DNA from: Acidimicrobiia bacterium
Lineage (GTDB): Bacteria > Actinomycetota > Acidimicrobiia > Acidimicrobiales > JANYDT01
Length of the DNA: 64,000 bases
Assembly (NCBI GenBank): GCA_043720395.1
Contig: JAYSSR010000038.1
Coordinates: 5,689 to 69,688, forward strand
Direction of reading: 5' to 3'
Shown: positions 5,861-56,070 of the stretch, piece after piece
Layout of the letters: each line of letters starts with the position of its first letter
Numbering within the stretch: position 1 is the first letter of the stretch
The notes under the pieces: model-generated
Told to the model about the DNA's origin: nothing
The model's input: the letters and a program-made list of their open reading frames with translations, nothing else
Databases searched by the model: none
Program-made: the position numbers and the translations under genes

Positions 5861-5868
5861 ATCCCGGG

Positions 5869-8235: not shown

Positions 8236-8319
8236 GGCCCAAGTCTCTCAGAAGGTCGGGGAACCACGACGCGCCGCTCCCCGGTCGGGCGTTCGCGACC
8301 TCCGAGTAGCGTCGATGCG

Positions 8320-40808: not shown

Positions 40809-40888
40809 TCTCGGCACAATGAAGGTGCGACCCCCGATTGAGTCCGCGGCCCCTTGACCAGGCACGCCCCAACTGTGAAGCTGGCTTC

Positions 40889-42724: not shown

Positions 42725-42862
42725 CGTGGTTGTCTCGCGTCCTTCGCCCATTTCCTTGAGGACCCGTAACGAAACAACGTGCGCGCACACTGATCGACAG
42801 CGCCGTGCGCGACACGGGTACGGAGATTTGGGCGCGCAAGTAGTTACGTTCCGTGCCCTCCC

Positions 42863-44260
42863 GTGATGGAACGCGGCAAGCGCTACACACAGCAGCGTCG
42901 AGCGCCAGGTCTGCGCCCGGGCCGTCACTCGCGCCAACGTAACCTCGCGCATGACACGGGCTGGTCCGCTGCAATCCAGGTCATGCGGCTCCTGGCCTCG
43001 CTCGCCACCTTTATTGCGTTTCGCATCACCATCGGAAACGGCCAATATGGCCCATTTGCCGGTGTCCAAGGCCTTGTCGTGCTGTCGAGCCTCCTTGGCT
43101 GCTTCTGGCTCCCGCAACTGGCCTTGCAGCGCGTCTTACGCGACCAGGTCTCAATCCAGTCGATGGCCACGAGGGCCATTTCACTTGCGGTCGTCGGCGG
43201 TGCTGTTTCGTTTGCCGCCATCATGGTGTCCGGGCGGATCTTTTTGCCGACAATTCCCCGACTCGCGCTCGCTGGGCTAGGACTGGCCGAGATCGCCGCA
43301 GCGATTCTCATCGAGATGCCTGCATCACTGATGCAGGCGAAGCGCGGGTTCGCTGCCTCGGCGCGAACCCGTCTGGTCACTCCCACCTGTCGACTCGTTG
43401 CCGTCGCGTTGGCGATTTTGACCTCGGTAGACACTCTGCAACGGTTCGCCGTTTTGGTCGCGGCGACACTCATACCCGCTGCCCTCGTCAGTGCCTTTGT
43501 CACCTTCCGCCGACTCGGGATACGGCCCTCGTTCGGTCCGTTCCTCGGTTCAGACGTGGTCGGCGGGCTTTCGTATTCAGTGATTGGTGGGCTCTACGTG
43601 ATTCAGGACGATGGCGACAAGACCATGCTGGTTTCCGCGGGATTCGATATCGACGCGGGACGGTATGCAGCGGCCTATCGACTTCTCCAGATCGCGATGT
43701 TCCCCATCAATGCCTTTGTTGCGGCAACCCATGGTCGGTTCCTCCAGTTCCGAGGAACAGACCCGCCGCGCGCCCGGCTTCGTCGAGCAGCCCGATTCGC
43801 GGCCCCGACGCTTGCCTATTCAATATTCGCAGCGGGCTTCGTCTTTGCGGCGGCTTCTCCCCTTGCTTCGCTCATGGGGATCGAGGGAGACGCCGTAATT
43901 TTCCGGTGGCTTTGCCTACTCCTCCCACTGCGCTGCACCGCAGAATTCGCGCTCAATGGACTGCTCGGACTCGGGCGGAACTGGATTCGCGTTGCGATCG
44001 TTGGAGTCTCCGGGTTCAGTAATGTCGCCATCAACCTCGCCTTCATTCCATCACATTCTTGGAAAGCCGCGGCCGCCGCCACGTTAATTGCCGACTCGCT
44101 CCTGACCGTAATCGCTTGGCTCGCGCTGGCCGTGCTGAGCCGGGGTCGATGGAATCAGTCGTTCACGCGGGCGGCGGAACCGGACCGTTCGGCCCGGACG
44201 GTATCGCCAGGCCGACCGAGGCGACGTTGGGGTGTGCGGCCTCGTCACGGGAGACCGTGA
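42863..44260 (+). CDS. Polysaccharide flippase (Wzx/MOP superfamily-like), polytopic membrane protein
   Basis: About 12 hydrophobic helices and a size and composition typical of oligosaccharide flippases. No sharp motif seen. Start uncertain. Confidence 0.6.
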   Translation: MMERGKRYTQQRRAPGLRPGRHSRQRNLAHDTGWSAAIQVMRLLASLATFIAFRITIGNGQYGPFAGVQGLVVLSSLLGCFWLPQLALQRVLRDQVSIQSMATRAISLAVVGGAVSFAAIMVSGRIFLPTIPRLALAGLGLAEIAAAILIEMPASLMQAKRGFAASARTRLVTPTCRLVAVALAILTSVDTLQRFAVLVAATLIPAALVSAFVTFRRLGIRPSFGPFLGSDVVGGLSYSVIGGLYVIQDDGDKTMLVSAGFDIDAGRYAAAYRLLQIAMFPINAFVAATHGRFLQFRGTDPPRARLRRAARFAAPTLAYSIFAAGFVFAAASPLASLMGIEGDAVIFRWLCLLLPLRCTAEFALNGLLGLGRNWIRVAIVGVSGFSNVAINLAFIPSHSWKAAAAATLIADSLLTVIAWLALAVLSRGRWNQSFTRAAEPDRSARTVSPGRPRRRWGVRPRHGRP

Positions 44261-44309
44261 GTTCCCCACCCCCAGTGACCTCCCCACCCACACACCCAGG
44301 GAGTTCGAG
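44259..44309. repeat. C-tract element related to the 24-nt G-tract repeat family (inverted orientation, degenerate)
   Basis: GAGTTCCCCACCCCCAGTGACCTCCCCACCCACACACCCAGGGAGTTCGAG lies directly after the wzx stop. Compare the reverse complement of the repeat unit, AGTTTCCCGCCCGCCCACCCAGTG. Confidence 0.5.
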
Positions 44310-44354
44310 AGGCGGATGCGGGGCAGCGCAAGGGATCACGAGTACACACTCGCG

Positions 44355-45623
44355 TCAGTGATGTGGCCGGGCACTGGGACGCGCATTGCGATAGACCGCA
44401 GACACGAGAAGCACCACGATCGCCCATCCGCCGTTGAGGAACGGCTCGCTTTCGGCTAGCGCCGTAGTCATGAGGCCGATGATGATGAGGGGCATCCACG
44501 CTCCCTTGCGTTCCCGTCGCAACCACGAAACCGAGCGGAGCAATGCGCCACCCAAGACGCAGAGGATTCCGACGAGACCGACCATCCCGAGTTGCAACCA
44601 GAAGTCCAAATACCCCTGATGTGCGTGGTACGCCCGAAACCCGGTCGCCGACCAGATCCTCACGCTCGCAGGGGTGGCGTCGTCCCAGATTCCGCCGAAG
44701 CCATGGCCTATCCACGGCCTGCGACCAATGGCCTGGACAACGGCGGACCAGATCCGGGTACGACCTGTAAACGTCGCGTCTCGTCCAAACACGCTCGTGA
44801 GTAGGGCGGGGTCGATGAAGAAGAGGCTCAGGCCGAGCAACACCCCGAGCAAAGCCGACAGGACGACGACGCTTCGGCGTAGGCCACGGGGGATCGAGCG
44901 GAACGCGCCGAAGAACGACGCGACACCGGCGACGACCACGAACGCGGCGACCGCAGTCGAAGATTGACTCAGCGCCACGAGTCCAATTGCCGCCGACGCC
45001 CAAAGCTTCCAACGACCACGGCCCTCCGTCACCAACACCACGAAGGCCATCCAGGCAAACATGCCGAGCGCGTTCTTGTGCTGGAACGAGCAGCGAAACC
45101 CGGGCGCGCCGTCGAGCGCAGTCCGACTAGCCCAGCCCGGCGCTACAACGATCTCGATGTAGCAGAGGGCGATAACCGCCCGAGCAAACTGCGCGAGCTT
45201 CGGCAGCAGGCGTTCGTTTGGTAGTAGCGCCCCGGCCGACCAGCCGATGAGCGACATCATGAACAGGGCGAGAACCCGCTTCCTGGAAGCTTGAACATCC
45301 ACCGACCAAACAATGGAGAGAAGTGCCCAGCCACAAAGAAACATCAGCGATATGGGGAGTCGGAGGTGTCGAAGCACGGACGCTGGCGTCGAAATAAGAG
45401 CGGCCAGAGCCATCGCAGTCACAACAAATCGGAGTAACCCGAGCTTACCGTGATCGGGAATAAGCAAGACCGACGGGGCAACCAAACAAAAAAGCTGGGC
45501 GATCCGAGTTTCCTTTCGACGGCCGACCAGGTCCTTCTCCCAATCTCGATTGTCTGGAAACAGGGGAACTGCCAGTCTCGCAGGGTTCGTCAAAAGAGGT
45601 CCCCGGTGTGAGATCTCGTTCAC
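44355..45623 (-). CDS. O-antigen ligase/polymerase (Wzy/WaaL-like) polytopic membrane protein
   Basis: About 10-12 TM helices with a large loop (FGGIWDDATPASVRIWSATGFRAYHAHQGYLDFWLQLG resembles the Wzy_C/O-antigen ligase loop). I chose the GTG at 45623, 7 nt after the upstream stop. The track ORF start at 46115 overlaps the PCP gene. Confidence 0.6.
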   Translation of the reverse strand: MNEISHRGPLLTNPARLAVPLFPDNRDWEKDLVGRRKETRIAQLFCLVAPSVLLIPDHGKLGLLRFVVTAMALAALISTPASVLRHLRLPISLMFLCGWALLSIVWSVDVQASRKRVLALFMMSLIGWSAGALLPNERLLPKLAQFARAVIALCYIEIVVAPGWASRTALDGAPGFRCSFQHKNALGMFAWMAFVVLVTEGRGRWKLWASAAIGLVALSQSSTAVAAFVVVAGVASFFGAFRSIPRGLRRSVVVLSALLGVLLGLSLFFIDPALLTSVFGRDATFTGRTRIWSAVVQAIGRRPWIGHGFGGIWDDATPASVRIWSATGFRAYHAHQGYLDFWLQLGMVGLVGILCVLGGALLRSVSWLRRERKGAWMPLIIIGLMTTALAESEPFLNGGWAIVVLLVSAVYRNARPSARPHH

Positions 45624-45630
45624 GTGCCTA

Positions 45631-47076
45631 TCAGGGCCGATTGATGATCGGGAAGATCGACTTTTGGTCGAAGGTCGGCGAAGTCGTGAGGTTGCGGAGG
45701 CGATCACAAACCTGGGTCGGAATCGGCACGACGACAACGATGAGATCCACGTGCGCCGCAAGCGCGACCGCAGCGGGACTTGCCGCGATGCCACCATCAA
45801 AGACCACGATGTCTGCGAGCGAACGTGCCCCCTCAACCAATCGCCCCGTTGCCTCGTAGGAAACCGCACCCGACGGTGCCGACTCCGAATCAGCGGGGAG
45901 AAAGAGAATTTTGTGGCCCTGCACCTCACGAACGAAGCGAAACTCAACCCCTTTGCCCTGATCGGCGAGAACCCGGCCGAGACCAGGCAGGCCGCTGGCA
46001 CCCAGCAGCGTCGTCGTGTGCGCGTTCTCCAAATTGGCGTCCACCAATAAAACCGATGCGTTCGTGCCCTCGAAGGAAGCCGCGAGGGCCCGAGCAATCG
46101 TCGATGTACCCGCACGCTCCTCGGAACTTGTCACCAGTACGGTGAAATGCTCACCCTTCATCCGGCCGATGATGAGCGAGGACATGTGGGCGAAATCGCG
46201 CTCGAAGGAGCTTGGCGAAGCACCCGTAGCGGTCGCGGGGAAAAAGGGCCGATCACCGAGCTGGCGAGCGTGGTGGATCTCCGTGAGGACGGGACGCCCG
46301 AGCATCTCCTCGGCCTGAGGGCGCGAGAGAACTCGCGGGCGGCCGAGCGCAGCCAGCGCAAGGATGACAAACGAGCCGAGCAGACCACCCCCAATCGCTG
46401 ACGCCAACAAGGCCGTGACCGCCGGACGGCCACCGCCGGAGAGGGCGTGCGGGGAGTCCAGCACCTGAACTGGCACATCGCGACTCGCGGTTCCGAACTC
46501 CACCTCGGTCTTGCTGGTAATCAACGCGTCGTACTCCTGCAGAAGCACCGCTCGCCGCGTGGTGGCATTTGACGTCGTGTCATCCTCAAGAATTCCGCTC
46601 AGAGCATCGAGATCGTCGAGTACCTGGGTAATTCGCGCGTCGATCGCCGTGGTCGACGCCACCGCACTCTGCGTCCGAATCTTCTGTCGGATCTCATTGA
46701 ACGACGTGACCAGCGCCTTGCCAATTTGCACGCCGATGGCCGTGGAATCGCTCTTGATCGTGATGTCGATGACGTCCGTTCGTGGTCGTTGCACGACACC
46801 TATCGACGTCTGAATTCCTGTGGCGGTCGTCCCAGGGACCTTTGCGGCGATCAATTTCGCGAGCTCGTCGCTCTGTAGCACTCCTATCTGGGTCTGCACA
46901 AACCGGTCGGGATCGGCTATGTCATTCGTCGGACGGGCGATCAGCATCGAAAGGCCCGCAGCCGACCCGTCATTGAACAGACCCAAAGCCAACAGTACGT
47001 TCGGACCCATTACGATCGCGAACAACAGAAAGGCGGCGCGTCTGCGCAAAATGCTGATAATGGTGCTGAGTTCCAT
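45631..47076 (-). CDS. Polysaccharide co-polymerase (Wzz-like) fused to a degenerate BY-kinase/ParA-like domain
   Basis: N-terminal TM, a periplasmic coiled region and a second TM (LLGSFVILALAAL), then a CpsD/Etk-like domain with VLVTSSEERAGTSTIA, VLLVDANL and DIVVFDGG. Confidence 0.7.
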   Translation of the reverse strand: MELSTIISILRRRAAFLLFAIVMGPNVLLALGLFNDGSAAGLSMLIARPTNDIADPDRFVQTQIGVLQSDELAKLIAAKVPGTTATGIQTSIGVVQRPRTDVIDITIKSDSTAIGVQIGKALVTSFNEIRQKIRTQSAVASTTAIDARITQVLDDLDALSGILEDDTTSNATTRRAVLLQEYDALITSKTEVEFGTASRDVPVQVLDSPHALSGGGRPAVTALLASAIGGGLLGSFVILALAALGRPRVLSRPQAEEMLGRPVLTEIHHARQLGDRPFFPATATGASPSSFERDFAHMSSLIIGRMKGEHFTVLVTSSEERAGTSTIARALAASFEGTNASVLLVDANLENAHTTTLLGASGLPGLGRVLADQGKGVEFRFVREVQGHKILFLPADSESAPSGAVSYEATGRLVEGARSLADIVVFDGGIAASPAAVALAAHVDLIVVVVPIPTQVCDRLRNLTTSPTFDQKSIFPIINRP

Positions 47077-47105
47077 ACGTGCTCCGAAGAAGTAAGTTGA
47101 AAATA

Positions 47106-50100
47106 CTACGTGCGCTTAGTTCGTCGCTGTAGTTCGTTCGACTCAATGTGAGATTCAAGCAACTCAGCAAGCTGAGGAAGGTTTTTCGGTGCGATCATCG
47201 AAAAGTGGTCGCCCGGAGCGTCCCGAACCTCGAACGTGCCAACGATGTTGGCCGCAAGGCCGTATCCCTCCGGGTACGCCGGCCATTCGGTAGCTGCACG
47301 TGCGAGCAAGACATTCACCCTGTAGATGCCCATTTCGTGAAGGTCGTACGCACGCTTGAAGTCGAGCTCCGCTGCGACTTCCGCCGTTGCATCATGGAGT
47401 TCATCGGCAGGCACCCCCGACTGCCGCGAAAACCTGCGGTCCAACACCCCTCGTGCCCATGGCATCACTGCGACCGGACCTCGTCTCCACAGGTTCCGGG
47501 CCACATTACGCAACTTGGCACCGATCGGCGGATTGAACCCGCGTGGAGGCACGGTGTCGAGGAGGATAACCGAGACAACATCGCGAGCGCGTTTGCGGAG
47601 TTCCTCAGCCATTTCGAGAGCGATGACGCCGCCACCGGAATATCCAGCAAGGAAGAACGGTCCCTCCGGCTGAACTTCCATCAATCGGGACGCGTACCGT
47701 TGTGCCATAGCGGAAATGCTTGCGTCGGCAAACCCACCGATAACCCAATTCGCCTGATAGCCGTACACGCTTCGATCGCCCCGCAAGGCGCGGGCAAGGA
47801 GCCGGAGCCCGACGAGATTGCCTCCTGCGCCGTGCACCATGTGCAGTGGAGTGGTCGTCGAATTCCGTCCCTCACGCAGCGTGATTGCAACCGACAGGTC
47901 CAGTGCCCGTTCCGGGGAGCGAAGAACGGCGAATGCGTTCGGGCTTGGGGCGATCACCAGCATCGGAAGCGAGGCAGTGCCTCCCAGCTCCCGACGGATG
48001 CGCGCCAACAGCCGTAAGCCCAGCAGTGAGTGGCCCCCGGCTTGGAAGAAGTCCGTATTCTCATCGGCAGCGGGGTCCCCGAGGACGTCGCGCCACAGCA
48101 GCGTAAGTCGCTCAAGGTCTGGCGCGCCGGTTGTCTCTGGCGATGTCGTGTTGACGAGGTGCCCTCCGTGTTCGACGGCACCCGATCTGGCCACGTCCGC
48201 TCGGCCAAGCACGGATTCGGCCCCAGCATGTGTGGACGCAGACTCCGGCTCACCAATAGTCACCAGGATCGCGTCGAAGCCGCTCGTCGAGGCGTGAACC
48301 AGCGCGCTACGAGCACGACTGGCCGTCATGGCGAGCGGTGCCGCCGCCGGGCTTGTCCATACGTCGCGAACTCGCCTCAGTTCACATCCCCTGAATACGG
48401 CGATCACCCCGTCGGCGTCGACTAGTCGAAGGTCGAAACAAACGAGGTCTGTGGTCATTTCACGCCGTCGGATCACAACATCGAACGCACCCTCGACGGG
48501 GCGGAACACCTCGACCGACGCAAACTGGGCCGGAACCCAAAATCCGACGGCAGCGCCTACGGAACCTTCCAGCCCAAGAGCGAGTGCCAAATCAAGGGCC
48601 GCCGGGTGCACGATCCACGACGAGTGCTCCGCGGCATACGACGCAAGAACAACTCGACCGAAGTCACGGTCCGACGAGCCTTGGACGTTCGCATTCCAGT
48701 GAGGCCCGACTACGAGCGAGCGGGTTTGATTTCTGAACACGTCAACGACTTCGAAGTCCGACGCAGCCCGAATCTCCGAGCCGTCGTAGGAATCGCCGAG
48801 GTCGTCGGTCGGCGGTGCGGCCACAATCGCCTGACTGTGCAGCGTCCACGTGTCGCCACCGGCCGGACGCCCCTCAACCCGCACAGCGCGGATGTCGCGG
48901 TCTGGCGGATCGAGGACGGCCCGAACCTCGACGACGACGTCGTCGTCGCAGAGCAGCGGCTCGATGATCGTGACGTCGACGATGTGGCGCGACGCGGGGC
49001 CTTCGCCGAGCGCGGCGAGCATCAGTGCAATATGTGCGGTGGCAGGGAGGACGGCACGCTCCGCAATGCGATGCTCGTTCAAGATCCACGTCTCGGTAGG
49101 GAGCGCAGAACCCGAAAGGACGATGGACCCGTCGGCGAGGGCATCGCGAACGTTGAAGAACGGGTGCGAAATCGAAATCGAGCCATGGACCACAGGCGTG
49201 CTGGCCATGCCGCCATCGCAGAATCGTCCCCAAGCGATGGTCGCGATTCGCGACGACCCTCGGGCCCCTGCGAGCGCCTCGACAACCGCGTTAGCAGCGA
49301 TGTACGCAGCCTGGCCGGGGATGCCGAGCGTGGTGCTCGCCGAGCCGACGAGCTGCACCAACGTGTCCGGGCGACTCTCGGCGTACCCGACCAATCGTTC
49401 AGCGATCATGAGCTTCGCCGCCAGCACCGCCTCCACGTCGTCCTCGGTCAACTGAGCGAGGAGACGGTCATGAAGCACACCGACCGCGTGGACGACCGAG
49501 TCGAACTCACTCGTTCGCAGCACCGCATCCAATTCCTTCGCGTTCGCCGCATCGACCACGCGGAGACTCACGGTGCGGCCAGCTTCGGTGGCCAACGCTT
49601 CGAGCTGAGCAAGGCGTCGAAGACGCTGGGATTGCGGTTCAGCGGGACCGTGTGTTGCAAGCCATGCCGATGCGTCAAGCGGAAGTTCAGACCTGGTCGT
49701 GACCGCAACGTCAGAACCGCTGGCGAGAAGCGCGGCTGCGTGAATGGCACCGACGTGTCCGAGGCCACCGAGCACAAGGCCGCATCGCCGCGACACGGCG
49801 TCGGCATGGTCCGTCAAGTCAGCACCTGTGACGGTGCGTGTCCAGGCCCGCCGCTTCGCTCCGTCGTGCCCCACGCCGACAACGCCGACGATTTCCGGGT
49901 CCATCAGAAGATCAACAATCGGTCCCAACACGCCCGACGGGGGTTCCGTGGAACCGCCGGACGCAGCACTGGAATGGCTCGCGAGGTCCACCACGATCCC
50001 GGTCAGTCCCGGGTATTCCTGTGCGAGGACGCCGGTAACACCCGCCGCGGCCGCCAGCCCTGGGTTGGCCGCCGGTGATGTTGGACTCGGCCATGCTCCG

Positions 50101-53100
50101 ACCGTCAGCACCGCTAAGCGGCCGACACCTGTTTCCGTCCGCTCGAAGAGCTGATTCGCTGCCTGTGCGCAGCGCCGGACCAATGAGGCGGCAACGTGTT
50201 CGAGTTGACGATCCCCTCCTCGCGTCACGACAAGTGCGCCAGTAAGTGGTGCGTTGGGCATCTCCTCGCCGGAGTTCACAAGGTGGATGCCGCGACGTTC
50301 CAGAGCGATGGAGAGCGCAGCGGCCACCCGGTCGTCGGGCTCTGCGTCGAGTAGCCAAACTCCGGCATACGCCGCTGACTCCTGGGACACCACCGGTGTC
50401 CAGGTCGGAACCGACACGACGACGTCGTGCGACTTCGAAGCTCCTGATTCAGGCGCGTCCGGACTGGCCGCAGTTGTCGAGACCCCTGCGCTCGGTCGCA
50501 CGGGATCGATCCAGGCGCGGTGCCGGTCGAGGCGCGGTACGGGAAGGCGTACTCGACGAACTGACGCGTCGACGAGGCGCCTCGCGTCAAGGTTTGCGCC
50601 ATGGCACCAAAGCTGTGTGACGCCATGCAGCAACCCGGTGACGGCGTCGGCATCGATGCCTCCGAGAATTGGAATCACCGTCGAACTTGGCTCCAGCGTT
50701 CGAACTGCTGCGGTGAGTACTTTCCCCGGAGCGACCTCGATTCCGAGGAACGGGCCGTCTGTTGCCGCGGCCCGTACCGCATCGCTGAAGCGGACGGTGC
50801 CGCGCAGCTCGTCAACCCAATACGCAGCGTCGAGCAGACCATCGAATCGGCCACCGGTCTGTGTCGAGTAGAACGCGATCTCCGGACGCCTCTGCGTCGT
50901 GTCGTTCATCCGCGCTCGGAACGCATCGAGATGGTCGTCGAGTCCACGGAAATGGGCGGCCGCCGCGAGGTTGACCCGTCGACAGTCGATGTCCGCACTG
51001 CGCAAAGCGCGTTCGAACAGGTCAATATCGGAAGTCGCGCCCGAATACACCAGTTCGTCGGGAGCATTCACCACCGCCAGATCGAGCGCGTCCGAAAGGT
51101 ACGGCCGCAGTTCGGACGCGGAAGCGAACACGGCGATCATTGCGGCCCCAGACGCTCCCGAACGCACTGGGTGGGCGGGCGGGGAATTCGCTGGGCGGGA
51201 CGCGTTCGCAATCGCCTCGGCACGCGCTCCGATGCCAATCACCGCGTCGCGCAGCGTTGCCGCGCCTGCCGCAACAGCCGCCGCATGCTCACCCATACTG
51301 TGACCGAGCACCCCCGCTGGGGCGATACCCCAATCCACGAGCTGCCGGCTCAAGGCATACTCCGCAACAAACAACGCCGGGAGCCCGACCGCGGGGTTGC
51401 GCAGACGCTCATCGATCGCGTCATCGCGTCCTGCGCGGAGCAGATCGCCAAGGTCCAGTCCCAGTTCCGTCCGTGCGGCGGCCACGGCTTGCTCGACCGC
51501 GTCATTGAACGTCCGAAAGCGGGGACCGGGCGCTGCGAGCAGTTCCGAGATCATCCCCGAACGCTGTGGTCCGGCACCTGGGAAAAGGAACAGCACCCTT
51601 GCCGATTGACTCGCCTGTACTGGCTTGACTGCATCGAGACCGCGCCGAAGATCGTCGGACGACGACCCGATCACGCCAGCTCGCCAGGCGTGCGCCGAGC
51701 GGCCGACGCCAAACGTCGCAGCTACCTGCGCGGGTGTCGGCAAGGTCGGAGCGGGTGTCGCGATTGTCCTGCCGACTCGTTCGGCAAGGTTGCAAAGACT
51801 CTCCGCCGTGGGCGCCGAGATCAACAACACCGACGGGTCCACGATGCCACCAACGACCGCCGCGGCGTCGCTGGAAGCCGCGGCCTCCACCAACTCCCCG
51901 CCCGCCCCCCCGGTCAACTCCCCGCCCGCCCCCCCGGTGAACTCTTCGACGATCACGTGCGCATTCGTCCCGCCGACACCGAGTGACGTCACACCTGCGC
52001 GCCGAGGTGCGGGTGCGTCCCATACCTCGAGTTCCGTGACGATCCGAAGTCCAGCACCAGCAAGGTCGATGAGGGGATTCGGTTCGGAGAAGTTGGCCTG
52101 TGGCGTGATCGTCCGTCGACGCAGCGATTCAACGATTTTGATGAGACCCGCGATCCCGGCGGCCGTGTCGGCGTGGCCGATGTTCGCCTTGATCGATCCA
52201 ACGGCGGGCAAGGTGGCAGTTGGCTCGGCATCGCGGCGATCTCGCGTTTTCAGCGCCTCAGACAGGGACGCGAACTCAATCGGATCACCAAGTGCAGTTC
52301 CGGTGCCGTGCGCCTCAATGAGCGAGACCGACGATGCTTCGATGCCTGCGACCGACAAGGCCTCACGGACGACGTCGACTTGGCCCTCCACGCTCGGCGC
52401 GTAGTAGCTCACCTTTCGCTGACCGTCGTTGTTGATGGCCGTACCTCGGAGCACGGCGAGGATCGGATCGTTTGCGGCAACGGCGTCCTCGTAGCGGCGC
52501 AGCGTCACCAGGCCCGCGCCGCTGCTGAGGACCGTTCCGGTCGCACGAGCATCGAAGGGTCGGCAGTATCCATCCGCGCTGAGCACTTCGCCAGCGACGT
52601 AGCGGTAACCAGCGCGCACGGGCACCTCGATCGTCGCCGCCCCCGCGAGAGCGAGGTCACACTCGAACGAGAGCAAGGCCTGTACGGCGAGGTGCACGGC
52701 CGTCAACGAGGTCGAGCATGCCGTCTGCACGCTCAGCGCGGGGCCTCGGAGATCGAGCCGATACGCGAGAGTGGTAGCGGCGAAATCTTTGTCGTTGCCA
52801 AGGTGTCGTAATCCAAACCAGCCGAGGTCTCGAATCAGGTCGGGGCGGCTCAGCAGGTTACGGGCGAGATAGGTGTTGTAACCGACGCCGACATAGACGC
52901 CGACACCGTCACGGAGGCGCTCCAGCTGGTGCGTGCCGGATTCGAGGGCTTCCCACGCGAGCTCCAGCAGGTGACGAATCTGCGGATCGATAAGGGCCGC
53001 CTCGCTCGGCGCAATCCCGAATCGGGCGGCGTCGAAGAGTTCGGGGTCGGCGAGATCGCCACCGCGTCGGATGCGCTCGGGGTCGGCCAAGTCGTGCGGC

Positions 53101-53288
53101 TCAAGGCCTGCCGCGATCAGATCGTCAACGGTCAGATCTGCGATCCCCTCACGGCCCGAGGCCAGAAGGTCCCACAGCTCGTCGGTATCGCGAGCACCAG
53201 CAAAGCGACCGGACATCCCGGTAATCGCGATTGCCCCCTCGAAGTGTTCAGAACCAGAGTTCACTGGGTGGGCGGGCGGCGAACTCAA
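47106..53288 (-). CDS. Type I polyketide synthase, single module KS-AT-KR-DH-ACP-TE (2060 aa)
   Basis: KS: IAITGMSGRFAG, VQTACSTSL, EAHGTGTALGDPIE, GSIKANIGHADTAAG. AT: FLFPGAGPQRSGM, GHSMGE. KR: LVLGGLGHVG, GQAAYIAANA. DH: HPFFNV, LNEHRIAERAVLP, VHPAALDLAL. ACP: FFQAGGHSLLGL. TE: MVHGAGGN, GYSGGG, PGDHFSM. The listed start is TTG at 53288; GTG at 53264 is an alternative. Confidence 0.9.
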   Translation of the reverse strand: MSSPPAHPVNSGSEHFEGAIAITGMSGRFAGARDTDELWDLLASGREGIADLTVDDLIAAGLEPHDLADPERIRRGGDLADPELFDAARFGIAPSEAALIDPQIRHLLELAWEALESGTHQLERLRDGVGVYVGVGYNTYLARNLLSRPDLIRDLGWFGLRHLGNDKDFAATTLAYRLDLRGPALSVQTACSTSLTAVHLAVQALLSFECDLALAGAATIEVPVRAGYRYVAGEVLSADGYCRPFDARATGTVLSSGAGLVTLRRYEDAVAANDPILAVLRGTAINNDGQRKVSYYAPSVEGQVDVVREALSVAGIEASSVSLIEAHGTGTALGDPIEFASLSEALKTRDRRDAEPTATLPAVGSIKANIGHADTAAGIAGLIKIVESLRRRTITPQANFSEPNPLIDLAGAGLRIVTELEVWDAPAPRRAGVTSLGVGGTNAHVIVEEFTGGAGGELTGGAGGELVEAAASSDAAAVVGGIVDPSVLLISAPTAESLCNLAERVGRTIATPAPTLPTPAQVAATFGVGRSAHAWRAGVIGSSSDDLRRGLDAVKPVQASQSARVLFLFPGAGPQRSGMISELLAAPGPRFRTFNDAVEQAVAAARTELGLDLGDLLRAGRDDAIDERLRNPAVGLPALFVAEYALSRQLVDWGIAPAGVLGHSMGEHAAAVAAGAATLRDAVIGIGARAEAIANASRPANSPPAHPVRSGASGAAMIAVFASASELRPYLSDALDLAVVNAPDELVYSGATSDIDLFERALRSADIDCRRVNLAAAAHFRGLDDHLDAFRARMNDTTQRRPEIAFYSTQTGGRFDGLLDAAYWVDELRGTVRFSDAVRAAATDGPFLGIEVAPGKVLTAAVRTLEPSSTVIPILGGIDADAVTGLLHGVTQLWCHGANLDARRLVDASVRRVRLPVPRLDRHRAWIDPVRPSAGVSTTAASPDAPESGASKSHDVVVSVPTWTPVVSQESAAYAGVWLLDAEPDDRVAAALSIALERRGIHLVNSGEEMPNAPLTGALVVTRGGDRQLEHVAASLVRRCAQAANQLFERTETGVGRLAVLTVGAWPSPTSPAANPGLAAAAGVTGVLAQEYPGLTGIVVDLASHSSAASGGSTEPPSGVLGPIVDLLMDPEIVGVVGVGHDGAKRRAWTRTVTGADLTDHADAVSRRCGLVLGGLGHVGAIHAAALLASGSDVAVTTRSELPLDASAWLATHGPAEPQSQRLRRLAQLEALATEAGRTVSLRVVDAANAKELDAVLRTSEFDSVVHAVGVLHDRLLAQLTEDDVEAVLAAKLMIAERLVGYAESRPDTLVQLVGSASTTLGIPGQAAYIAANAVVEALAGARGSSRIATIAWGRFCDGGMASTPVVHGSISISHPFFNVRDALADGSIVLSGSALPTETWILNEHRIAERAVLPATAHIALMLAALGEGPASRHIVDVTIIEPLLCDDDVVVEVRAVLDPPDRDIRAVRVEGRPAGGDTWTLHSQAIVAAPPTDDLGDSYDGSEIRAASDFEVVDVFRNQTRSLVVGPHWNANVQGSSDRDFGRVVLASYAAEHSSWIVHPAALDLALALGLEGSVGAAVGFWVPAQFASVEVFRPVEGAFDVVIRRREMTTDLVCFDLRLVDADGVIAVFRGCELRRVRDVWTSPAAAPLAMTASRARSALVHASTSGFDAILVTIGEPESASTHAGAESVLGRADVARSGAVEHGGHLVNTTSPETTGAPDLERLTLLWRDVLGDPAADENTDFFQAGGHSLLGLRLLARIRRELGGTASLPMLVIAPSPNAFAVLRSPERALDLSVAITLREGRNSTTTPLHMVHGAGGNLVGLRLLARALRGDRSVYGYQANWVIGGFADASISAMAQRYASRLMEVQPEGPFFLAGYSGGGVIALEMAEELRKRARDVVSVILLDTVPPRGFNPPIGAKLRNVARNLWRRGPVAVMPWARGVLDRRFSRQSGVPADELHDATAEVAAELDFKRAYDLHEMGIYRVNVLLARAATEWPAYPEGYGLAANIVGTFEVRDAPGDHFSMIAPKNLPQLAELLESHIESNELQRRTKRT
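47154..47861 (-). other. PKS thioesterase domain (approximate)
   Basis: aa ~1810-2045. GYSGGG (GxSxG), LLDT, GDHFSM. Confidence 0.75.
47904..48125 (-). other. PKS acyl carrier protein domain (approximate)
   Basis: aa ~1722-1795. GGHSLLGLRLLARI phosphopantetheine-attachment Ser motif. Confidence 0.8.
48369..49166 (-). other. PKS hot-dog (PS-DH-like) domain located after the KR (approximate)
   Basis: aa ~1375-1640. HPFFNV, HxxxExxxxP (LNEHRIAERAVLP), HPAALDLAL. Confidence 0.6.
49224..50411 (-). other. PKS ketoreductase domain including structural subdomain (approximate)
   Basis: aa ~960-1355. RLAVLTVGAWP...GLTGIVVDL (psi-KR-like), GGLGHVG Rossmann motif, and Tyr in GQAAYIAANA. Confidence 0.7.
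50709..51599 (-). other. PKS acyltransferase domain (approximate)
   Basis: aa ~564-860. GHSMGE nucleophile and a downstream AAAHF region. Interrupted by a repeat-derived insertion at aa 698-716. Confidence 0.75.
51165..51190 (+). repeat. G-tract repeat copy A (CACTGGGTGGGCGGGCGGGGAATTCG) inside the AT-coding region
   Basis: Seen directly. On the coding (minus) strand it encodes NSPPAHPVRS. Confidence 0.9.
51891..51938 (-). repeat. Two tandem inverted-orientation copies of the 24-nt unit (plus-strand CAACTCCCCGCCCGCCCCCCCGGT x2) in the KS-AT linker coding region
   Basis: Exact 24-nt tandem duplication. The reverse complement ACCGGGGGGGCGGGCGGGGAGTTG matches 20/24 positions of copy A. Encodes TGGAGGEL twice. 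Confidence 0.9.
51948..53237 (-). other. PKS ketosynthase domain (approximate)
   Basis: aa ~18-447. Active-site Cys in TACSTS, His in EAHGTG and IGHADTA. Confidence 0.8.
53262..53287 (+). repeat. G-tract repeat copy B (CACTGGGTGGGCGGGCGGCGAACTCA) spanning the PKS start region
   Basis: Seen directly. On the minus strand it encodes SSPPAHPVN at PKS residues 2-10. Confidence 0.9.
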
Positions 53289-53297
53289 AATGCCTGA

Positions 53298-53867
53298 TCA
53301 GCTCGTTCGGAAGTTTTCAAAATAACGACTCGGAGTCGGTCCTCGCTGGCCCTGATACTTGGAGCCCAGAGCAGACGAGCCGTACGGGTTATCAGCAGGA
53401 GATGTCATTCGAAGAAAGCTGATCTGGCCAATTTTCATACCCGGGTACAACGTGATCGGCAGGGTGGCCGCATTGCTCAATTCCAGCGTGATGTGCCCAT
53501 CAAAGCCTGGATCGATGAAGCCTGCCGTGGAATGAATCACGAGACCTAATCGTCCAAGGCTCGATTTGCCCTCGATCCGGGCCACAAGGTCGGCCGGCAC
53601 GGCAATCCTCTCAGCGGTCGCGCCCAGTACGAACTCACCGGGGTGGAGAATGAACACGTCGTCCTCACCGATCTCGATGAGTTCAGTGAGATCTTCCTGA
53701 TTCTCTTTGACGTCGATAACGGCAGTCGTGTGATTGCGAAACACGCGAAAATATCGATCGACTCGAAGGTCGATCGACGATGGCTGGATGTTCGCCGGTT
53801 CAAACGGGTCAACCACAATTCGCCCCGCGGCAATCTCTTCGCGAAGCGTCCGGTCGGAGAGGATCAT
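53298..53867 (-). CDS. dcd: dCTP deaminase (dCTP deaminase/dUTPase family)
   Basis: [12 protein letters not shown]...[10 protein letters not shown]...[31 protein letters not shown] are classic Dcd motifs. Confidence 0.9.
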
Positions 53868-53931
53868 GGGGGGAGAGTCCAGAGTTGGCGGACCAGACGT
53901 TCAGGCCACGGGACCACGCAGCGTAGTAGGT

Positions 53932-54003
53932 CACTGGGTGGGTGGGCGGGAAACTCACTGGGTGGGCGGGCGGGAAACTCACTGGGTGGGTGGCGGGGAG
54001 CCC
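53932..54003 (+). repeat. 3 x 24-nt tandem G-tract repeats (CACTGGGTGGGYGGGCGGGAAACT)
   Basis: Copies start at 53932, 53956 and 53980; the third is degenerate (CACTGGGTGGGTGGCGGGGAGCC). Each unit contains GGGTGGGCGGGCGGG, four G3 tracts with 1-nt loops. Intergenic, upstream of dcd. Confidence 0.9.
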
Positions 54004-54016
54004 GTCGAAGCGCCAC

Positions 54017-54074
54017 GGCTCGCACACCCGACGAAGTCGCGGCGGCTCGCACACCCGACGAAGTCGCGGCGGCT
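54017..54074 (+). repeat. 2 x 27-nt perfect tandem repeat (GGCTCGCACACCCGACGAAGTCGCGGC) plus a partial third unit
   Basis: Copies at 54017-54043 and 54044-54070, then GGCT. Abuts and overlaps the stop codon of the GH16 gene at 54073. Confidence 0.9.
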
Positions 54075-56070
54075 ACAACGGTGCGTAGACCCGAACCCAG
54101 TCGACCAGTACCGTCGCCGGGAAGTCGGCCAACGATGGCGGTCCCGGCCATTCGCCACCGACGGATTGGTTGATGATCACGTAGAACGGCTTGTCGAACG
54201 GGGCCGTGCCGCCAGGAACCCGGTAGCTATGGACCAGAACGTCATCGACGTACCACCGGATGATCCCCGCCTCCCACTCGATCGCGTACCGGTGCCACTC
54301 CGACGCCGGACTCGCAAGATCGGCACCGGCGGACGACGCTTTGTGGGAACCGCTTTCCCCCCAATGAATCGTATGGAAGACCGTCTGCGGGGGCTTGGCG
54401 ACGTACTCCATGATGTCGATTTCGCCGCTATTCGGCCAACCCCCGTAGGCCGCGTCTGCCGGCATGAGCCAGAACGCGGGCCACGTGCCTTTCGCGAGCG
54501 GCAGCTTCATGCGCGCCTCGAAACGTCCGTACGTCTGCGCAAATTTTCGACGTGTGGTCACGAGCCCGCTGACCCAGGCACGGTTTGACCCATTGCAGGT
54601 GGCGGATTTCGGCTGGGCGGTGAGCTGCAAGGAACCACCAGCGACGACGCTCTGCTCGGAGCGATAGCACTCGAGACCGAACGTGTCGTCGAAGTCACCT
54701 GCACCGGTCGTGACGGCGGTCCAGTCGGCACCGAGCCCGTCTGTGAACTCGTCGGACCAGGTCAACACCCGCGGACCCACCGGAAGCGAGGTCGTGGTTG
54801 AGGATGGGGCCGCCGTCGCGGACGTTGTCGATGTGGACGTAATGGACGTGGTCGCTGGCACCGTCGACGTGGAGGCTGGCACCGTCGACGTGGAGGCTGG
54901 CACCGTGGACGCTGGCACCGTGGACGTGGTCGACGTGGCGGAAGGCGCTGTCGTTGTGGAGGCTGTCGTTGTGGAGGCTGTCGTCGTGGAGGCTGTCGTC
55001 GTCGCGGTGGGTGTCGGCGTCGTTGTCGTCGCCGCGGTCGGTCTCGACGTACTCGTGCCGGTCGCCGTCGCGGTCGTGGTCGTGACGCCGGGGGTCGCGG
55101 CGGTGAGGTTGGGTGGGGCCGGACTCGTGGTCGGAGCAAGGGTCGGCCGTGCAGACACCGTCGTTGCGGTCGTCGCCGTCGTGGTGATGGTCGGTGATCC
55201 GAGCAACTTCGGGACTGACGTGGATGTTGTCGCCGAAACCGTGACGGATGACGGCGCCAAGACATTCGCACCACTCGCGCCAACGCGCAACGCCGTGGTG
55301 GACGCCGTCGTGCTGGTCGACGTCGTGCTGGTGGGTGTCGTGAGCGGAACCGAGGCCGGGGTCAAGGTTTCTTGAACTGCGGCGAGTTCGGCAACACCGG
55401 TGGACCATGTCAGGTCCTCGCTGTCACCCGCTGTGGCCGAGCGGGGTTCCGCAACTGTCGAGACGGGTTCCGCAGTCGTCGGGACGGTTTCATCGGCCGT
55501 CGCAACCGGTTCCACACTCGTCAAGACGGGTTCTTCGCCACCCCGCCCACCAGGGACCTCGATCCAGTCAAACCAGACATCCGCCAAGTCGAATCGGACG
55601 GCGTTTGCACCCGCTCGAAGCGGGAGGACGACGGCGACGGTGGACCAACTATCGGGCGAGGCGAGGTAGCGGACGCCGCCCGCCACGGCAACGTCGTTTA
55701 CCGAAATCGTTCTCGTCACTGCACCCGTCGTTCGAAACCTGACGGACATCACAACTTCGCCTGCTACAAGCGCCGAAACGATGCACGTCGCCGAACCCGT
55801 TCCCTCGGTGCCCGAGCCGAAGACGGCAGATCCCTCCAAGCCGGATGGATTCACCGAACTCGACGCCACCACGCCCGTGAGCGTGCAGTCCTCAACTTGG
55901 ACGCGCGCAAGAGTCATGGTGTCGACCGGCCGGGCGGGCAACGACACGAGGGGTTCGATCTGATCGACCGAGTTCGCCCCGGAACCGCTCGAGAGAAGCA
56001 GCGCAGGCAGAGACCCGAGCGCGATGGCCACGACTGCGGCAAGAGCGGCGGCCTGCGAACGACGTGTCAC
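54073..56070 (-). CDS. Secreted GH16 glycoside hydrolase with N-terminal CBM6/35-like module and a ~200-aa Thr/Ser/Pro/Ala linker
   Basis: Signal/TM AAALAAVVAIALGSLPALLL, a lectin-like N-domain and a long T/S/A/P linker. The C-terminal domain has LTWSDEFTD, the catalytic SGEIDIMEY (ExDxxE) and IINQSVGGEWPG. Confidence 0.8.
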   Translation of the reverse strand: MTRRSQAAALAAVVAIALGSLPALLLSSGSGANSVDQIEPLVSLPARPVDTMTLARVQVEDCTLTGVVASSSVNPSGLEGSAVFGSGTEGTGSATCIVSALVAGEVVMSVRFRTTGAVTRTISVNDVAVAGGVRYLASPDSWSTVAVVLPLRAGANAVRFDLADVWFDWIEVPGGRGGEEPVLTSVEPVATADETVPTTAEPVSTVAEPRSATAGDSEDLTWSTGVAELAAVQETLTPASVPLTTPTSTTSTSTTASTTALRVGASGANVLAPSSVTVSATTSTSVPKLLGSPTITTTATTATTVSARPTLAPTTSPAPPNLTAATPGVTTTTATATGTSTSRPTAATTTTPTPTATTTASTTTASTTTASTTTAPSATSTTSTVPASTVPASTSTVPASTSTVPATTSITSTSTTSATAAPSSTTTSLPVGPRVLTWSDEFTDGLGADWTAVTTGAGDFDDTFGLECYRSEQSVVAGGSLQLTAQPKSATCNGSNRAWVSGLVTTRRKFAQTYGRFEARMKLPLAKGTWPAFWLMPADAAYGGWPNSGEIDIMEYVAKPPQTVFHTIHWGESGSHKASSAGADLASPASEWHRYAIEWEAGIIRWYVDDVLVHSYRVPGGTAPFDKPFYVIINQSVGGEWPGPPSLADFPATVLVDWVRVYAPL
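54854..55006 (-). repeat. Tandem coding repeats in the GH16 linker (21-nt GCTGGCACCGTCGACGTGGAG units, then 15-nt GCTGTCGTYGTGGAG units x4)
   Basis: Seen directly. Encodes STVPASTSTVPAS... and TTTAS x4 low-complexity linker sequence. Confidence 0.85.

Follow-up and report, generated by a model that had tools for sequence, protein, structure and literature searches.

The actinobacterial MIRU-VNTR loci (mycobacterial interspersed repetitive units), which Supply et al. are said to have described in 1997/2000, are reportedly GC-rich repeats of 46-101 bp found at about 40 loci genome-wide; to our knowledge, no in-frame insertions of MIRUs within enzyme domains have been reported, and we know of no defining G-quadruplex (G4) motif or fixed flanking word for them. 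The pilE G4 of Neisseria gonorrhoeae (GGGTGGGTTGGGTGGGG), studied by Cahoon and Seifert in 2009, is said to be a single conserved copy that needs a dedicated sRNA promoter for its formation, and reportedly drives gene conversion of pilE from silent copies. Repeats of the (G3T)n type, which form G4s when the DNA is single-stranded, make deletion and slippage more frequent in E. coli (PMC10530614). Promoter-associated G4s of GC-rich bacteria are presented, in the abstracts of PMC6539912 and PMC6200779, as single motifs derived from genome-wide statistics, and the abstract of PMC4360481 describes G4s on the template strand as generally reported to be inhibitory. Rickettsia palindromic elements (RPEs) and other intragenic MITEs are short non-autonomous elements that insert in frame into unrelated genes, adding a peptide and leaving the protein intact (PMC10969869). 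Mutations are known to arise by template switching to nearby templates, a process that includes short-range, microhomology-mediated templated insertions (PMC7954356), and microhomology-mediated end joining by group II intron-like reverse transcriptases has been described in bacteria (bioRxiv 10.1101/2022.03.14.484287).

The locus considered here carries a 24-nt repeat of G and C tracts upstream of dcd, within a 64-kb stretch of Acidimicrobiia DNA that was analysed as a whole and is referred to below as the window. We give roughly even odds to the reading that this is an unstable, lineage-specific G/C-tract mini-repeat, which would grow by slippage and spread locally through template switching at GAGTTC microhomology, its effects on expression being a by-product.

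Tandem arrays in the GH16-dcd gap

The genes and repeats of the region, all transcribed or read on the minus strand, are the following.

54073-56070, minus strand: GH16 glycoside hydrolase gene (PF00722) with a Thr/Ser-rich linker
53868-54072, 205 nt: GH16-dcd gap, bounded by the GH16 stop (54073-54075, minus strand) and by the ATG of dcd (53867)
54001-54074, minus strand: 27-nt tandem repeat, starting 2 nt past the GH16 stop
53932-54003, minus strand: 24-nt tandem array of three units, read on the coding strand as GAGTTT + CCCGCCC(G/A)CCCACCCAGT
53868-53931, minus strand: conserved dcd leader, a probable promoter -10 box plus 5' UTR, ACCTACTACGCTGCGTGGTCCCGTGGCCTGAACGTCTGGTCCGCCAACTCTGGACTC...
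53920-53925, minus strand: candidate -10 hexamer TACGCT (TANNNT type), inferred, at the 5' edge of the conserved block
53298-53867, minus strand: dcd (dCTP deaminase, PF22769)
47106-53288, minus strand: type I PKS (KS-AT-KR-DH-ACP-TE), 2060 aa counted from a conserved TTG

An earlier note had described the gap as holding three 24-nt and two 27-nt tandem repeats, and this description was borne out. By direct reading, the 24-nt units occupy 53932-53955, 53956-53979 and 53980-54003, and perfect 27-nt units occupy 54017-54043 and 54044-54070, with a partial, diverged copy at 54001-54016. Tandem Repeats Finder agreed, reporting 2.8 copies of period 24 at 53931-53997 and 2.8 copies of period 27 at 54001-54074. 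Neither unit was matched in any of 100 dinucleotide-preserving shuffles, and the Logan assembly L001 (SRR23617227) contains an identical set of three 24-nt units before breaking inside the 27-nt repeat. The units stand head to tail without spacers and the neighbours checked yielded no cas domains, in agreement with the note's statement that this is not a CRISPR array. The partial 27-nt copy (GTGGCGCTTCGACGGG) resembles an ancestral spacer (GAACGCTCCGACGAG) retained in the closest relative, L165. No convincing copy of the 27-nt repeat was found in relatives or in the rest of the 64-kb window, nor was a donor for it found in the window; a candidate homologue in L002 was rejected, since its best match has 8 errors and about 20 matches from the background are at least as good.

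Units 1 and 2 differ by 1 nt and are G-rich on the plus strand (GGGTGGGYGGGCGGG), which is the template strand for dcd-PKS, as had been proposed. Unit 3, the last, is diverged: it reads CACTGGGTGGGTGGCGGGGAGCCC, deviates at 6 of 24 positions and keeps only three G3+ tracts. The assertion that each 24-mer is a minimal G4 motif is thus accurate for units 1 and 2, with four G3 tracts and 1-nt loops, but fails for unit 3. When folded in ViennaRNA with G-quadruplex terms, under RNA parameters, a single unit is predicted to form a three-layer G4 at -36.0 kcal/mol, versus -1.9 kcal/mol without these terms. Folding of the RNA of the whole gap was no more stable than that of shuffled sequences (z = +0.7), and readings of the arrays as structured RNA or as a hairpin terminator were dropped on this result.

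The array, the conserved leader and expression

The regulatory reading developed from the note is that template-strand G4s in or beside the dcd-PKS promoter gate transcription, with gain or loss of units giving phase or graded variation. Consistent with it, units 1 and 2 carry a canonical short-loop motif that thermodynamic prediction strongly favours, the array ends only 6 nt upstream of the candidate -10 box, lineages differ in unit number, and inhibition is, according to the abstract of PMC4360481, what is generally reported for G4s on this strand. Comparison of the dcd upstream region with four related Acidimicrobiia loci (L002, L163, L164 and L165) nonetheless speaks against such a gate. 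The leader, 58-64 nt in length, is 97-100% identical in L002, L163/L164 and L165, against 64% at dcd third codon positions, and the conserved block begins at CTACTACGCT in all relatives; the CTACGCT motif also recurs in L084 and L087, where it precedes the dcd start by 8-9 nt. Upstream of the -10 box the sequence is unconserved among relatives, and the number of 24-nt units there is 0 in L165, 0 in each of L163 and L164, 1 in L002 and 3 in the window, these lineages differing by 6-13% in dcd. In L165 only 18 nt, without any unit, separate the GH16 stop from the conserved leader, and in L163/L164 unrelated sequence takes the place of the array.

The position claimed for the array, at the promoter, therefore holds in that it abuts the probable -10 box (TACGCT, 53925-53920), but not in the sense of a conserved promoter part, since L165 and L163/L164 keep leader and promoter with no unit at all. 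A similar split applies to variable copy number as a switch: lineages do differ (0, 0, 0, 1, 3), but a 24-nt period leaves the -35/-10 spacing unchanged, the array being located 5' of the -10 box and not between two fixed promoter elements. Phase-variable repeats are expected as a tract between promoter elements or as one that changes frame within an ORF; the array here is upstream, and the copies found within ORFs (see below) keep frame. Further points against the gate are that the same unit occurs in coding DNA and in a 3' gap, places where no promoter is expected, that the G-rich strand is here the template, as opposed to the displaced non-template strand inferred for the quoted literature case, and that the two available assemblies of the source organism, with 3 units each, reveal no within-population variation. 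Taken together, we regard transcriptional gating by these G4s as highly doubtful. On the alignments, the 24-nt array is placed in a non-conserved spacer just 5' of the conserved dcd promoter/leader and appears dispensable for that leader.

The constrained element is instead the 58-64-nt leader itself, a so far uncharacterised conserved regulatory region. No sigma-70 promoter was found in 53200-54400 with an E. coli-type consensus, a model that is uninformative for actinobacterial promoters. No Rfam family reached gathering thresholds, and permissive thresholds gave only noise at E > 1 in 53200-54200. A structured leader RNA was considered but found no support: a hairpin is predicted, but covariation is absent from the alignment and the window sequence breaks one of the pairs. 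The idea that dcd has a conserved upstream ORF or an N-terminal extension through the leader was set aside, as an indel ahead of the ATG leaves the frames unconserved between L002 and the window.

The strand opposite to the G tracts invites a different functional reading, in which the C-rich, G-poor RNA of the units acts as a rut site that terminates transcripts of GH16, and of a flippase-like gene described below, insulating the dcd promoter, so that expansion was selected. Taken as minus-strand RNA, no other 78-nt segment of the 64 kb is as strongly skewed towards C over G as the array, with 41 C and 12 G (C/G 3.4, where the 99.9th percentile of the 64 kb is 2.4). As far as composition and the fold z-score of +0.7 go, it matches the expectation for a rut tract of about 70-80 nt that is C-rich, G-poor, weakly structured and located after a stop codon. 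A scan of 53200-54400 found no intrinsic terminator in the gap, the gap RNA is not unusually structured, and both intergenic loci of the family come after a stop codon and are oriented such that the RNA of the gene ending there is C-rich. With only two intergenic loci, however, orientation carries little weight as an argument; three of the five loci lie inside the PKS ORF, relatives manage with 0-1 unit, and the tract at the other intergenic site spans only about 40 nt. Selection for termination at these units is, on balance, distinctly unlikely. Any effect on dcd or PKS expression, whether through a template-strand G4 at about -13 to -85 or through a C-rich, rut-like tract in the 3' RNA of GH16, would be a by-product of the repeat and not what accounts for its existence.

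Copies of the unit and their empty sites

The unit was defined as a GAGTTY junction followed by the 18-nt core CCCGCCCGCCCACCCAGT, 24 nt in all. Besides the array upstream of dcd, the following copies were identified.

53262-53285, minus strand: single unit AGTTCGCCGCCCGCCCACCCAGTG, an exact 24-nt insertion directly after the conserved PKS TTG start, encoding SSPPAHPV
51892-51939, minus strand: two identical 24-nt units with inverted core (ACCGGGGGGGCGGGCGGG + GAGTTG) in the KS-AT linker, encoding TGGAGGEL twice
51165-51188, minus strand: single unit AATTCCCCGCCCGCCCACCCAGTG, inserted as exactly 24 nt and in frame into a loop of the PKS acyltransferase (AT) domain, encoding NSPPAHPV
44259-44306, plus strand: 42-nt insertion of two degenerate units (CCCACCCCCAGT, GACCTC, CCCACCCACACACCCAGG) with a perfect GAGTTC...GAGTTC duplication at both ends

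The family thus comprises five loci and about 10 units in the window, all within 44.26-54.0 kb and none elsewhere in the 64 kb. An nhmmer profile of the unit, run against all fetched loci, recovered only the five obvious copies of the window and missed the degenerate one at 44.26 kb, which was found by G4Hunter and C-tract scans. About 0.98 Mb of other Acidimicrobiia dcd loci contain no member of the family, and the exact pattern CACTGGGTGGGYGGGCGGNRAAYT had 0 matches in GTDB representative genomes and JGI metagenome contigs, collections that include neither the source genome nor the repeat family. Canonical G4 motifs (G3+ N1-7, four tracts) are present in array units 1 and 2, in the AT-loop copy and in both linker copies, where they fall on the coding strand and in the mRNA; unit 3 and the PKS N-terminal copy do not contain one. 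All short-loop G4 motifs of the window belong to this family, as do 7 of the 12 G3/C3 tract clusters observed, 32 being expected.

The presentation of the array as a feature of the dcd-PKS upstream region does not survive this census, the same unit being found in frame inside the PKS gene and in another intergenic gap. All three intragenic loci are in the PKS gene. A 24-nt unit amounts to 8 codons, so copies in ORFs keep the reading frame, and the peptides that they add are absent from homologues. In the N-terminal copy, CAC at 53262-53285 (GTG on the minus strand) serves as the alternative PKS start in the Logan gene call. The TGA stop of the flippase-like gene (42863-44260) is where the 44.26-kb insertion begins.

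Relatives preserve the corresponding empty sites, relative to which the insertions are exact, of 24 nt or of 42-48 nt. The PKS N-terminal site is empty in L165, where TTGAGTTC is directly followed by TAATTCT, and also in L002 and L163/L164. At the linker, where the two window units are identical at 24/24 positions, L163 has the empty site (GAAGAGTTC joined to GTAGGTGG) and L002 has one 21-nt unit; no donor for the 57 extra linker nucleotides was found in the window. The 44.26-kb site is empty in L167 (CCGTGAGTTCGAGCG) and L166 (CCGTGAGATCGAGCG), and the insertion is also absent in L168. The AT-loop unit is missing from L002, L163 and 14 more distant PKS homologues; there is no close empty-site relative for it, and its flanks, GAATTC and GCGTTC, match GAGTTC only loosely. 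The near-identity of copies within the linker and between array units 1 and 2 indicates that these events were recent. On this comparative evidence the repeats upstream of dcd are best described as recent, dispensable copies of a small G/C-tract repeat, and not as a conserved promoter switch.

A six-base word marks these sites. GAGTTC was already present in the empty sites of the PKS N-terminus (L165), the linker (L163) and the 44.26-kb locus (L167), and the empty site upstream of dcd reads GAGCT (L165). At filled sites the flanks are GAGTTC/GAACTC, GAGTTC/GAGTTG/GAGTTG, GAGTTC/GAGTTC and, around the dcd-upstream array, GGGCT/GACCT. The clearest case is 44259-44306, where GAGTTC stands on both sides of the insertion and only once in the empty site; the other four sites have similar but imperfect flanks. 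Since GAGTTC occurs, in either orientation, only 68 times in 64 kb, its adjacency to three independent sites is not due to chance. The core is found in both orientations and unit boundaries are identical at every site, and no terminal inverted repeats, internal inverted repeat or hairpin were detected in the core or in the 24-nt unit.

Several near-identical 24-nt sites concentrated in one gene cluster could also be expected of operators for a DNA-binding regulator of dcd-PKS and the polysaccharide cluster. The units have no dyad symmetry, however, and they arose through insertions within coding DNA, are missing from close relatives in which both genes and leader are retained, and are conserved neither in copy number nor in position, all of which makes a role as operators very improbable.

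The flanking words bear more directly on how the unit is copied. In the reading that we favour, local template switching, DNA synthesis would leave a GAGTTC (or GAGCT) word and pair with the same word at the edge of a nearby unit, one or two units would be copied in either orientation, and synthesis would then return to the original word, with a unit-length insertion between duplicated GAGTTC words as the outcome. Tandem growth (from 1 to 3 units upstream of dcd, from 1 to 2 in the linker) may have come about by the same copying process or by ordinary slippage. The G3/C3 tracts, G4-capable on single strands, probably promote the polymerase stalling that would trigger copying. The family would have no dedicated function, and only harmless copies would be retained, namely those that are intergenic or those that are in frame and stop-free in protein loops or linkers.

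Against this reading, a microhomology of 5-6 nt is short for repeated template switches, and a site-specific insertion enzyme would equally be expected to leave a fixed target word and a perfect flanking duplication of 6 bp. It is conceivable that an enzyme encoded elsewhere inserts the 18-nt core at GAGTTC, in either orientation, duplicating the target. The perfect duplication at 44259-44306 over the GAGTTC empty site of L167, the two further loci with GAGTTC empty sites, the occurrence of both orientations and the constant unit boundaries would all fit, as would the sharing of unit sites by two non-sister lineages: by dcd identity the window groups with L165 and L002 with L163, yet units upstream of dcd and in the KS-AT linker are common to the window and L002 and absent from L165 and L163, a distribution that requires parallel gains, precise losses or recombination between lineages and that also weighs against local template switching. 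Such a mobile element would nevertheless lack terminal inverted repeats or a hairpin and fall far below the size of all transposable elements described; the neighbouring genes checked included no transposase, integrase or reverse transcriptase, two sites have flanks that resemble GAGTTC only loosely, and the confinement of all copies to 10 kb within the 64-kb window fits the use of a template close by. We consider it unlikely. A bolder version, which we hold to be fairly unlikely, would make the 18-nt core the payload of an undescribed mini insertion element, GAGTTC-specific, word-duplicating and inserting in either orientation through an undescribed enzyme or dedicated repair pathway; arrays would form by re-insertion into its own duplicated target, proteins would undergo 8-residue loop remodelling, and the G4 strand might be the recognised form or an intermediate.

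Because sister lineages preserve filled sites as well as empty ones, each step can be traced at the level of single bases. If local template switching is correct, the locus would offer a clean natural example of the birth and spread of a very short repeat, from single unit to tandem array to nearby sites marked by a six-base word, including in-frame entry into enzyme loops and linkers. It would also illustrate that a textbook G4 motif can stand beside a promoter without serving in regulation. The 8-residue inserts that the PKS tolerates mark its N-terminus, KS-AT linker and AT loop as permissive positions for engineering.

Relation to known repeat systems

Among dispersed bacterial repeats, the family resembles RPEs and intragenic MITEs in having both intergenic and intragenic copies, flanks like those of target duplications and in-frame added peptides. 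RPEs, however, are palindromic, about 100-150 bp long and spread over many unrelated genes, whereas this unit is 24 nt, non-palindromic and, within coding sequence, confined to one gene. Of the two hallmarks of MITEs, a target-site duplication is present and terminal inverted repeats are not; the family has no inverted repeat, forms tandem arrays, and its known copies all fall within 10 kb. REP/BIME elements are imperfect palindromes that form stem-loops, are extragenic, number tens to hundreds of copies and are associated with a RAYT transposase; here no inverted repeat exists inside the unit, and the gap RNA folds no more stably than shuffles (z = +0.7). In the 64-kb window, three of the five loci are intragenic and all copies are confined to 10 kb.

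With MIRU-VNTR loci the array upstream of dcd shares a GC-rich tandem repeat located between same-strand genes, lineage-variable copy number and openness in the reading direction of the flanking genes, but its 24-nt unit, its in-frame copies in the PKS and the combination of a G4 motif with the GAGTTC flanking word set it apart. The pilE G4 is a nearly identical short-loop motif upstream of a gene and is, as proposed here, linked to recombination rather than to promoter strength; in the present case it is the motif itself that is copied, without a variable cassette system, and it is not conserved in relatives. The promoter G4s surveyed in PMC6539912 and PMC6200779 are comparable as G3-tract motifs near the transcription start region of high-GC bacteria, but in this window tract clusters are otherwise depleted, and 7 of 12 come from one recently amplified repeat family. 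A further parallel would be with templated insertions, which likewise use a nearby template, yield direct or inverted copies and have a few bases of microhomology at both junctions; these are usually one-off events with varied microhomologies, whereas in the present family four to five sites share a single 18-nt payload together with the GAGTTC word.

Repeats and the conserved leader upstream of dcd

The 205-nt gap between the GH16 hydrolase gene (stop codon at 54073-54075, minus strand) and dcd (ATG at 53867) contains the two adjoining tandem repeats reported in the earlier note. Neither unit was matched in 100 dinucleotide-preserving shuffles (0 matches each), and an independent Logan assembly (SRR23617227) carries the same three 24-nt units as the window and breaks within the 27-nt repeat.

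Features of the GH16-dcd gap
53931-53997: 24-nt tandem repeat, 2.8 copies, units starting at 53932, 53956 and 53980
54001-54074: 27-nt tandem repeat, 2.8 copies, perfect units at 54017 and 54044
53868-53931, minus strand: conserved leader directly before dcd

In units 1 and 2 of the 24-nt array the plus strand reads GGGTGGGYGGGCGGG, bearing out the claim that the G-rich strand is the template for dcd-PKS. The G-quadruplex (G4) motif of four G3 tracts, claimed for every 24-mer, holds for these two units but not for unit 3, which differs at 6 of its 24 positions and keeps three G3 tracts only. The 27-nt repeat is a separate, recent tandem duplication directly after the GH16 stop, with no further copy in the window or relatives; its partial third copy, GTGGCGCTTCGACGGG, is similar to the short spacer kept in the relative L165, GAACGCTCCGACGAG, which is ancestral. 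It holds a small CGAC-TTC-GTCG hairpin, and structure in the region was not significant. Unrelated short perfect or near-perfect tandem repeats lie at 23472-23536 (18 nt x3.6), 3583-3629 (21 nt x2.2) and 40902-40930 (13 nt x2.2), a hint of a general tendency of the source genome towards small tandem duplications.

Among named genomes, Acidimicrobiia MAGs come nearest, and close relatives in the collections number only a handful.

Related loci, with dcd nucleotide identity to the window
L165, JGI sample 3300080924: closest by dcd (93.5%)
L163/L164, JGI samples 3300080923/4: 87.7%
L002/L166, JGI sample 3300081716: 86.8% (L002), PKS 73% identical in amino acids to the window
L167, sample 3300080924: flippase-like gene present
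L168: more distant relative, flippase-like gene present

The dcd genes of L002 and L163 are 89.3% identical. GH16 lies directly upstream of dcd in the window, L163/L164 and L165, unlike in L002, where about 4.1 kb (5251-9256) intervene, comprising a cation-efflux gene, an F5/8-type-C protein and two hypothetical genes.

The leader, CTACTACGCTGCGTGGTCCCGTGG(G)CCTGAACGTC(T/G)GGTCCGCCAACTCTGGACTC, spans 58-64 nt in five lineages (L002, 9359-9424; L163, 2775-2841; L165, 585-647) and is 97-100% identical in all relatives, while the window and L002 agree at only 64% of dcd third codon positions. Its conservation sets in sharply at CTACTACGCT, and it contains a ACGCTGCGT palindrome, GGTCC-N16-GGTCC direct repeats and TACGCT (53925-53920), which matches the actinobacterial TANNNT type and which we infer to be the candidate dcd -10 box. 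In L084 and L087, two Acidimicrobiia that are more distant, CTACGCT likewise precedes the start of dcd by 8-9 nt. No Shine-Dalgarno sequence precedes dcd. The leader matches no Rfam family and shows no covariation; probably it represents a promoter/operator or 5' UTR element not characterised before. In several other Acidimicrobiia (L086, L095, L006) a tRNA gene lies immediately upstream of dcd, whose start codon is preceded at 7-12 nt by a TANNNT box; in the window's clade, the long conserved leader has replaced this leaderless-type arrangement.

Sequence 5' of the candidate -10 box is not conserved among the window, L165, L163/L164 and L002: the leader is preceded by just 18 nt after the GH16 stop in L165, by 117 nt of unrelated sequence in L163/L164, by one unit in L002, and by three units plus the 27-mers in the window. 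The array therefore adjoins the probable promoter, in the -35/UP place, much as the earlier note had placed it, but is no conserved promoter component. By comparison among relatives, the array is apparently dispensable and the leader is the conserved element.

The unit family across the window

The unit is not restricted to the dcd gap: searches of the window for the 24-mer and for G4 motifs, suggested as a gauge of enrichment at that gap, and a G4Hunter and C-tract scan gave four further loci. The family was examined in 64 kb of genome and a few short relatives; all five loci fall between 44.26 and 54.0 kb, with no units in the remaining 54 kb of the window.

Further unit loci
53262-53285: 24-mer copy, at most 2 mismatches
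51165-51188: 24-mer copy, at most 2 mismatches
51892-51939: inverted, diverged unit pair
44259-44306: degenerate unit pair, found by G4Hunter and a C-tract scan

The five short-loop G4 motifs of the window are all family copies. C3 or G3 tracts clustered in threes are otherwise depleted (12 clusters observed versus 31.7 +/- 4.6 in composition-matched shuffles, about 2.6-fold rarer), and the family accounts for 7 of these 12, which suggests that G4-prone sequence is generally avoided in the source genome, the unit family excepted.

With the array apparently dispensable and the family also present within the PKS gene, the evidence points away from the dedicated G4 switch proposed upstream of dcd. 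A template-strand G4 at about -13 to -85 of the dcd promoter could possibly have an effect. Read as minus-strand RNA, the array is also the 78-nt stretch of the window with the strongest skew of C over G (C/G 3.4), a composition with which it might act as a rut-like tract; both intergenic unit loci follow a stop codon in C-rich orientation, and no intrinsic terminator was found in the GH16-dcd gap. RNA G4s predicted for the linker copies within the PKS transcript are likewise possible.

Empty and filled sites

GH16, dcd and the gene for a type I PKS of 2060 aa (KS-AT-KR-DH-ACP-TE) share the minus strand, with panB, a PBP and a CCA-adding enzyme upstream. Downstream are polysaccharide genes (chain-length-determinant-like, Wzy_C, flippase-like, TPR protein, WecG, glycosyltransferases), which form a low-GC block at 40000-48000 (0.61-0.62 versus about 0.65 elsewhere) in the same 10-kb neighbourhood as all repeat copies; the block is possibly a surface-polymer island, variable or acquired. 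The GH16 gene has at 54845-55533 a long Thr/Ser/Ala-rich linker of several overlapping 15-, 18-, 21- and 30-nt tandem repeats, and a JGI call places a spurious antisense gene across the matching region of L002.

Sites with and without units (slash, junction)
dcd upstream: empty in L165, GACGAG/CTACTACGC; filled in the window, GACGGGCT-[three units]-GACCTACTACGC
PKS 5' end: empty in L165, TTGAGTTC/TAATTCT, and also in L002 and L163/L164; filled in the window, TTGAGTTC-GCCGCCCGCCCACCCAGT-GAACTC-TGGTTCT, exactly 24 nt, 8 codons, LS[SPPAHPVN]SGSEHF
KS-AT linker of the PKS: empty in L163, GAAGAGTTC/GTAGGTGG; one 21-nt unit in L002; filled in the window, GAAGAGTTC-ACCGGGGGGGCGGGCGGG-GAGTTG-ACCGGGGGGGCGGGCGGG-GAGTTG-GTGGAGG, core inverted
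Acyltransferase (AT) loop: filled in the window by an exact 24-nt insert giving NSPPAHPV, flanks GAATTC/GCGTTC; insert absent from L002, L163 and 14 more distant homologues
44.26 kb: empty in L167, CCGTGAGTTCGAGCG, and L166, CCGTGAGATCGAGCG; absent in L168; filled in the window, CCGT-GAGTTC-CCCACCCCCAGT-GACCTC-CCCACCCACACACCCAGG-GAGTTC-GAGAGG, 42 nt inserted between the two copies of a perfect 6-bp duplication

With an internal ATG as its start, the NCBI model of the PKS (2036 aa) loses the conserved KS N-terminus FEGAIAITGM, and the Logan call starts at a GTG brought by the inserted unit (window 53264-53288); the TTG at 53288, kept in all relatives, is likely the true start. Near 44.26 kb, the flippase-like gene and Wzy_C overlap tail-to-tail in L166 and L167 and are 94 nt apart in the window (44307-44354, 44355-45260), where Wzy_C has a shorter and different C-terminus and about 33 further window-specific bases adjoin the insertion.

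Proposed copying of the units

GAGTTC occurs, in either orientation, at only 68 places in 64 kb, so chance does not explain why it was already present at three empty sites, each verified independently. The copies are near-identical and all within 10 kb, share a fixed 18-nt payload core with a fixed word duplicated at both junctions, and occur in both orientations, as one- or two-unit inserts and with tandem growth. This is exactly the structure expected of copy-choice or template switching, in which a nascent end finishing in GAGTTC would re-pair with that word where it borders a nearby unit, and copying would proceed up to the next GAGTTC before switching back to where it began. For the inverted linker copies, a donor between GAACTC words (GAGTTC reverse-complemented) would be required, and such flanks are present at the dcd-upstream unit of L002 and on the right of the window's PKS N-terminal copy. 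Enzyme-mediated, GAGTTC-specific insertion, a less likely alternative, would leave identical scars; the neighbour genes checked included no transposase, integrase or reverse transcriptase.

Units occupy the dcd-upstream and KS-AT linker sites in both the window and L002 but are lacking there in the closer relatives (L165 of the window, L163 of L002), which speaks for a preference for these sites, for precise loss or for recombination between lineages. On the whole the evidence favours a mini-repeat family that is specific to the lineage and was recently active, with copying linked to GAGTTC and with inserts that stay in frame in the PKS. In bacteria, G3/C3 tracts stall replication and raise slippage and deletion rates (PMC10530614), and template switching over short distances is well established (PMC7954356).
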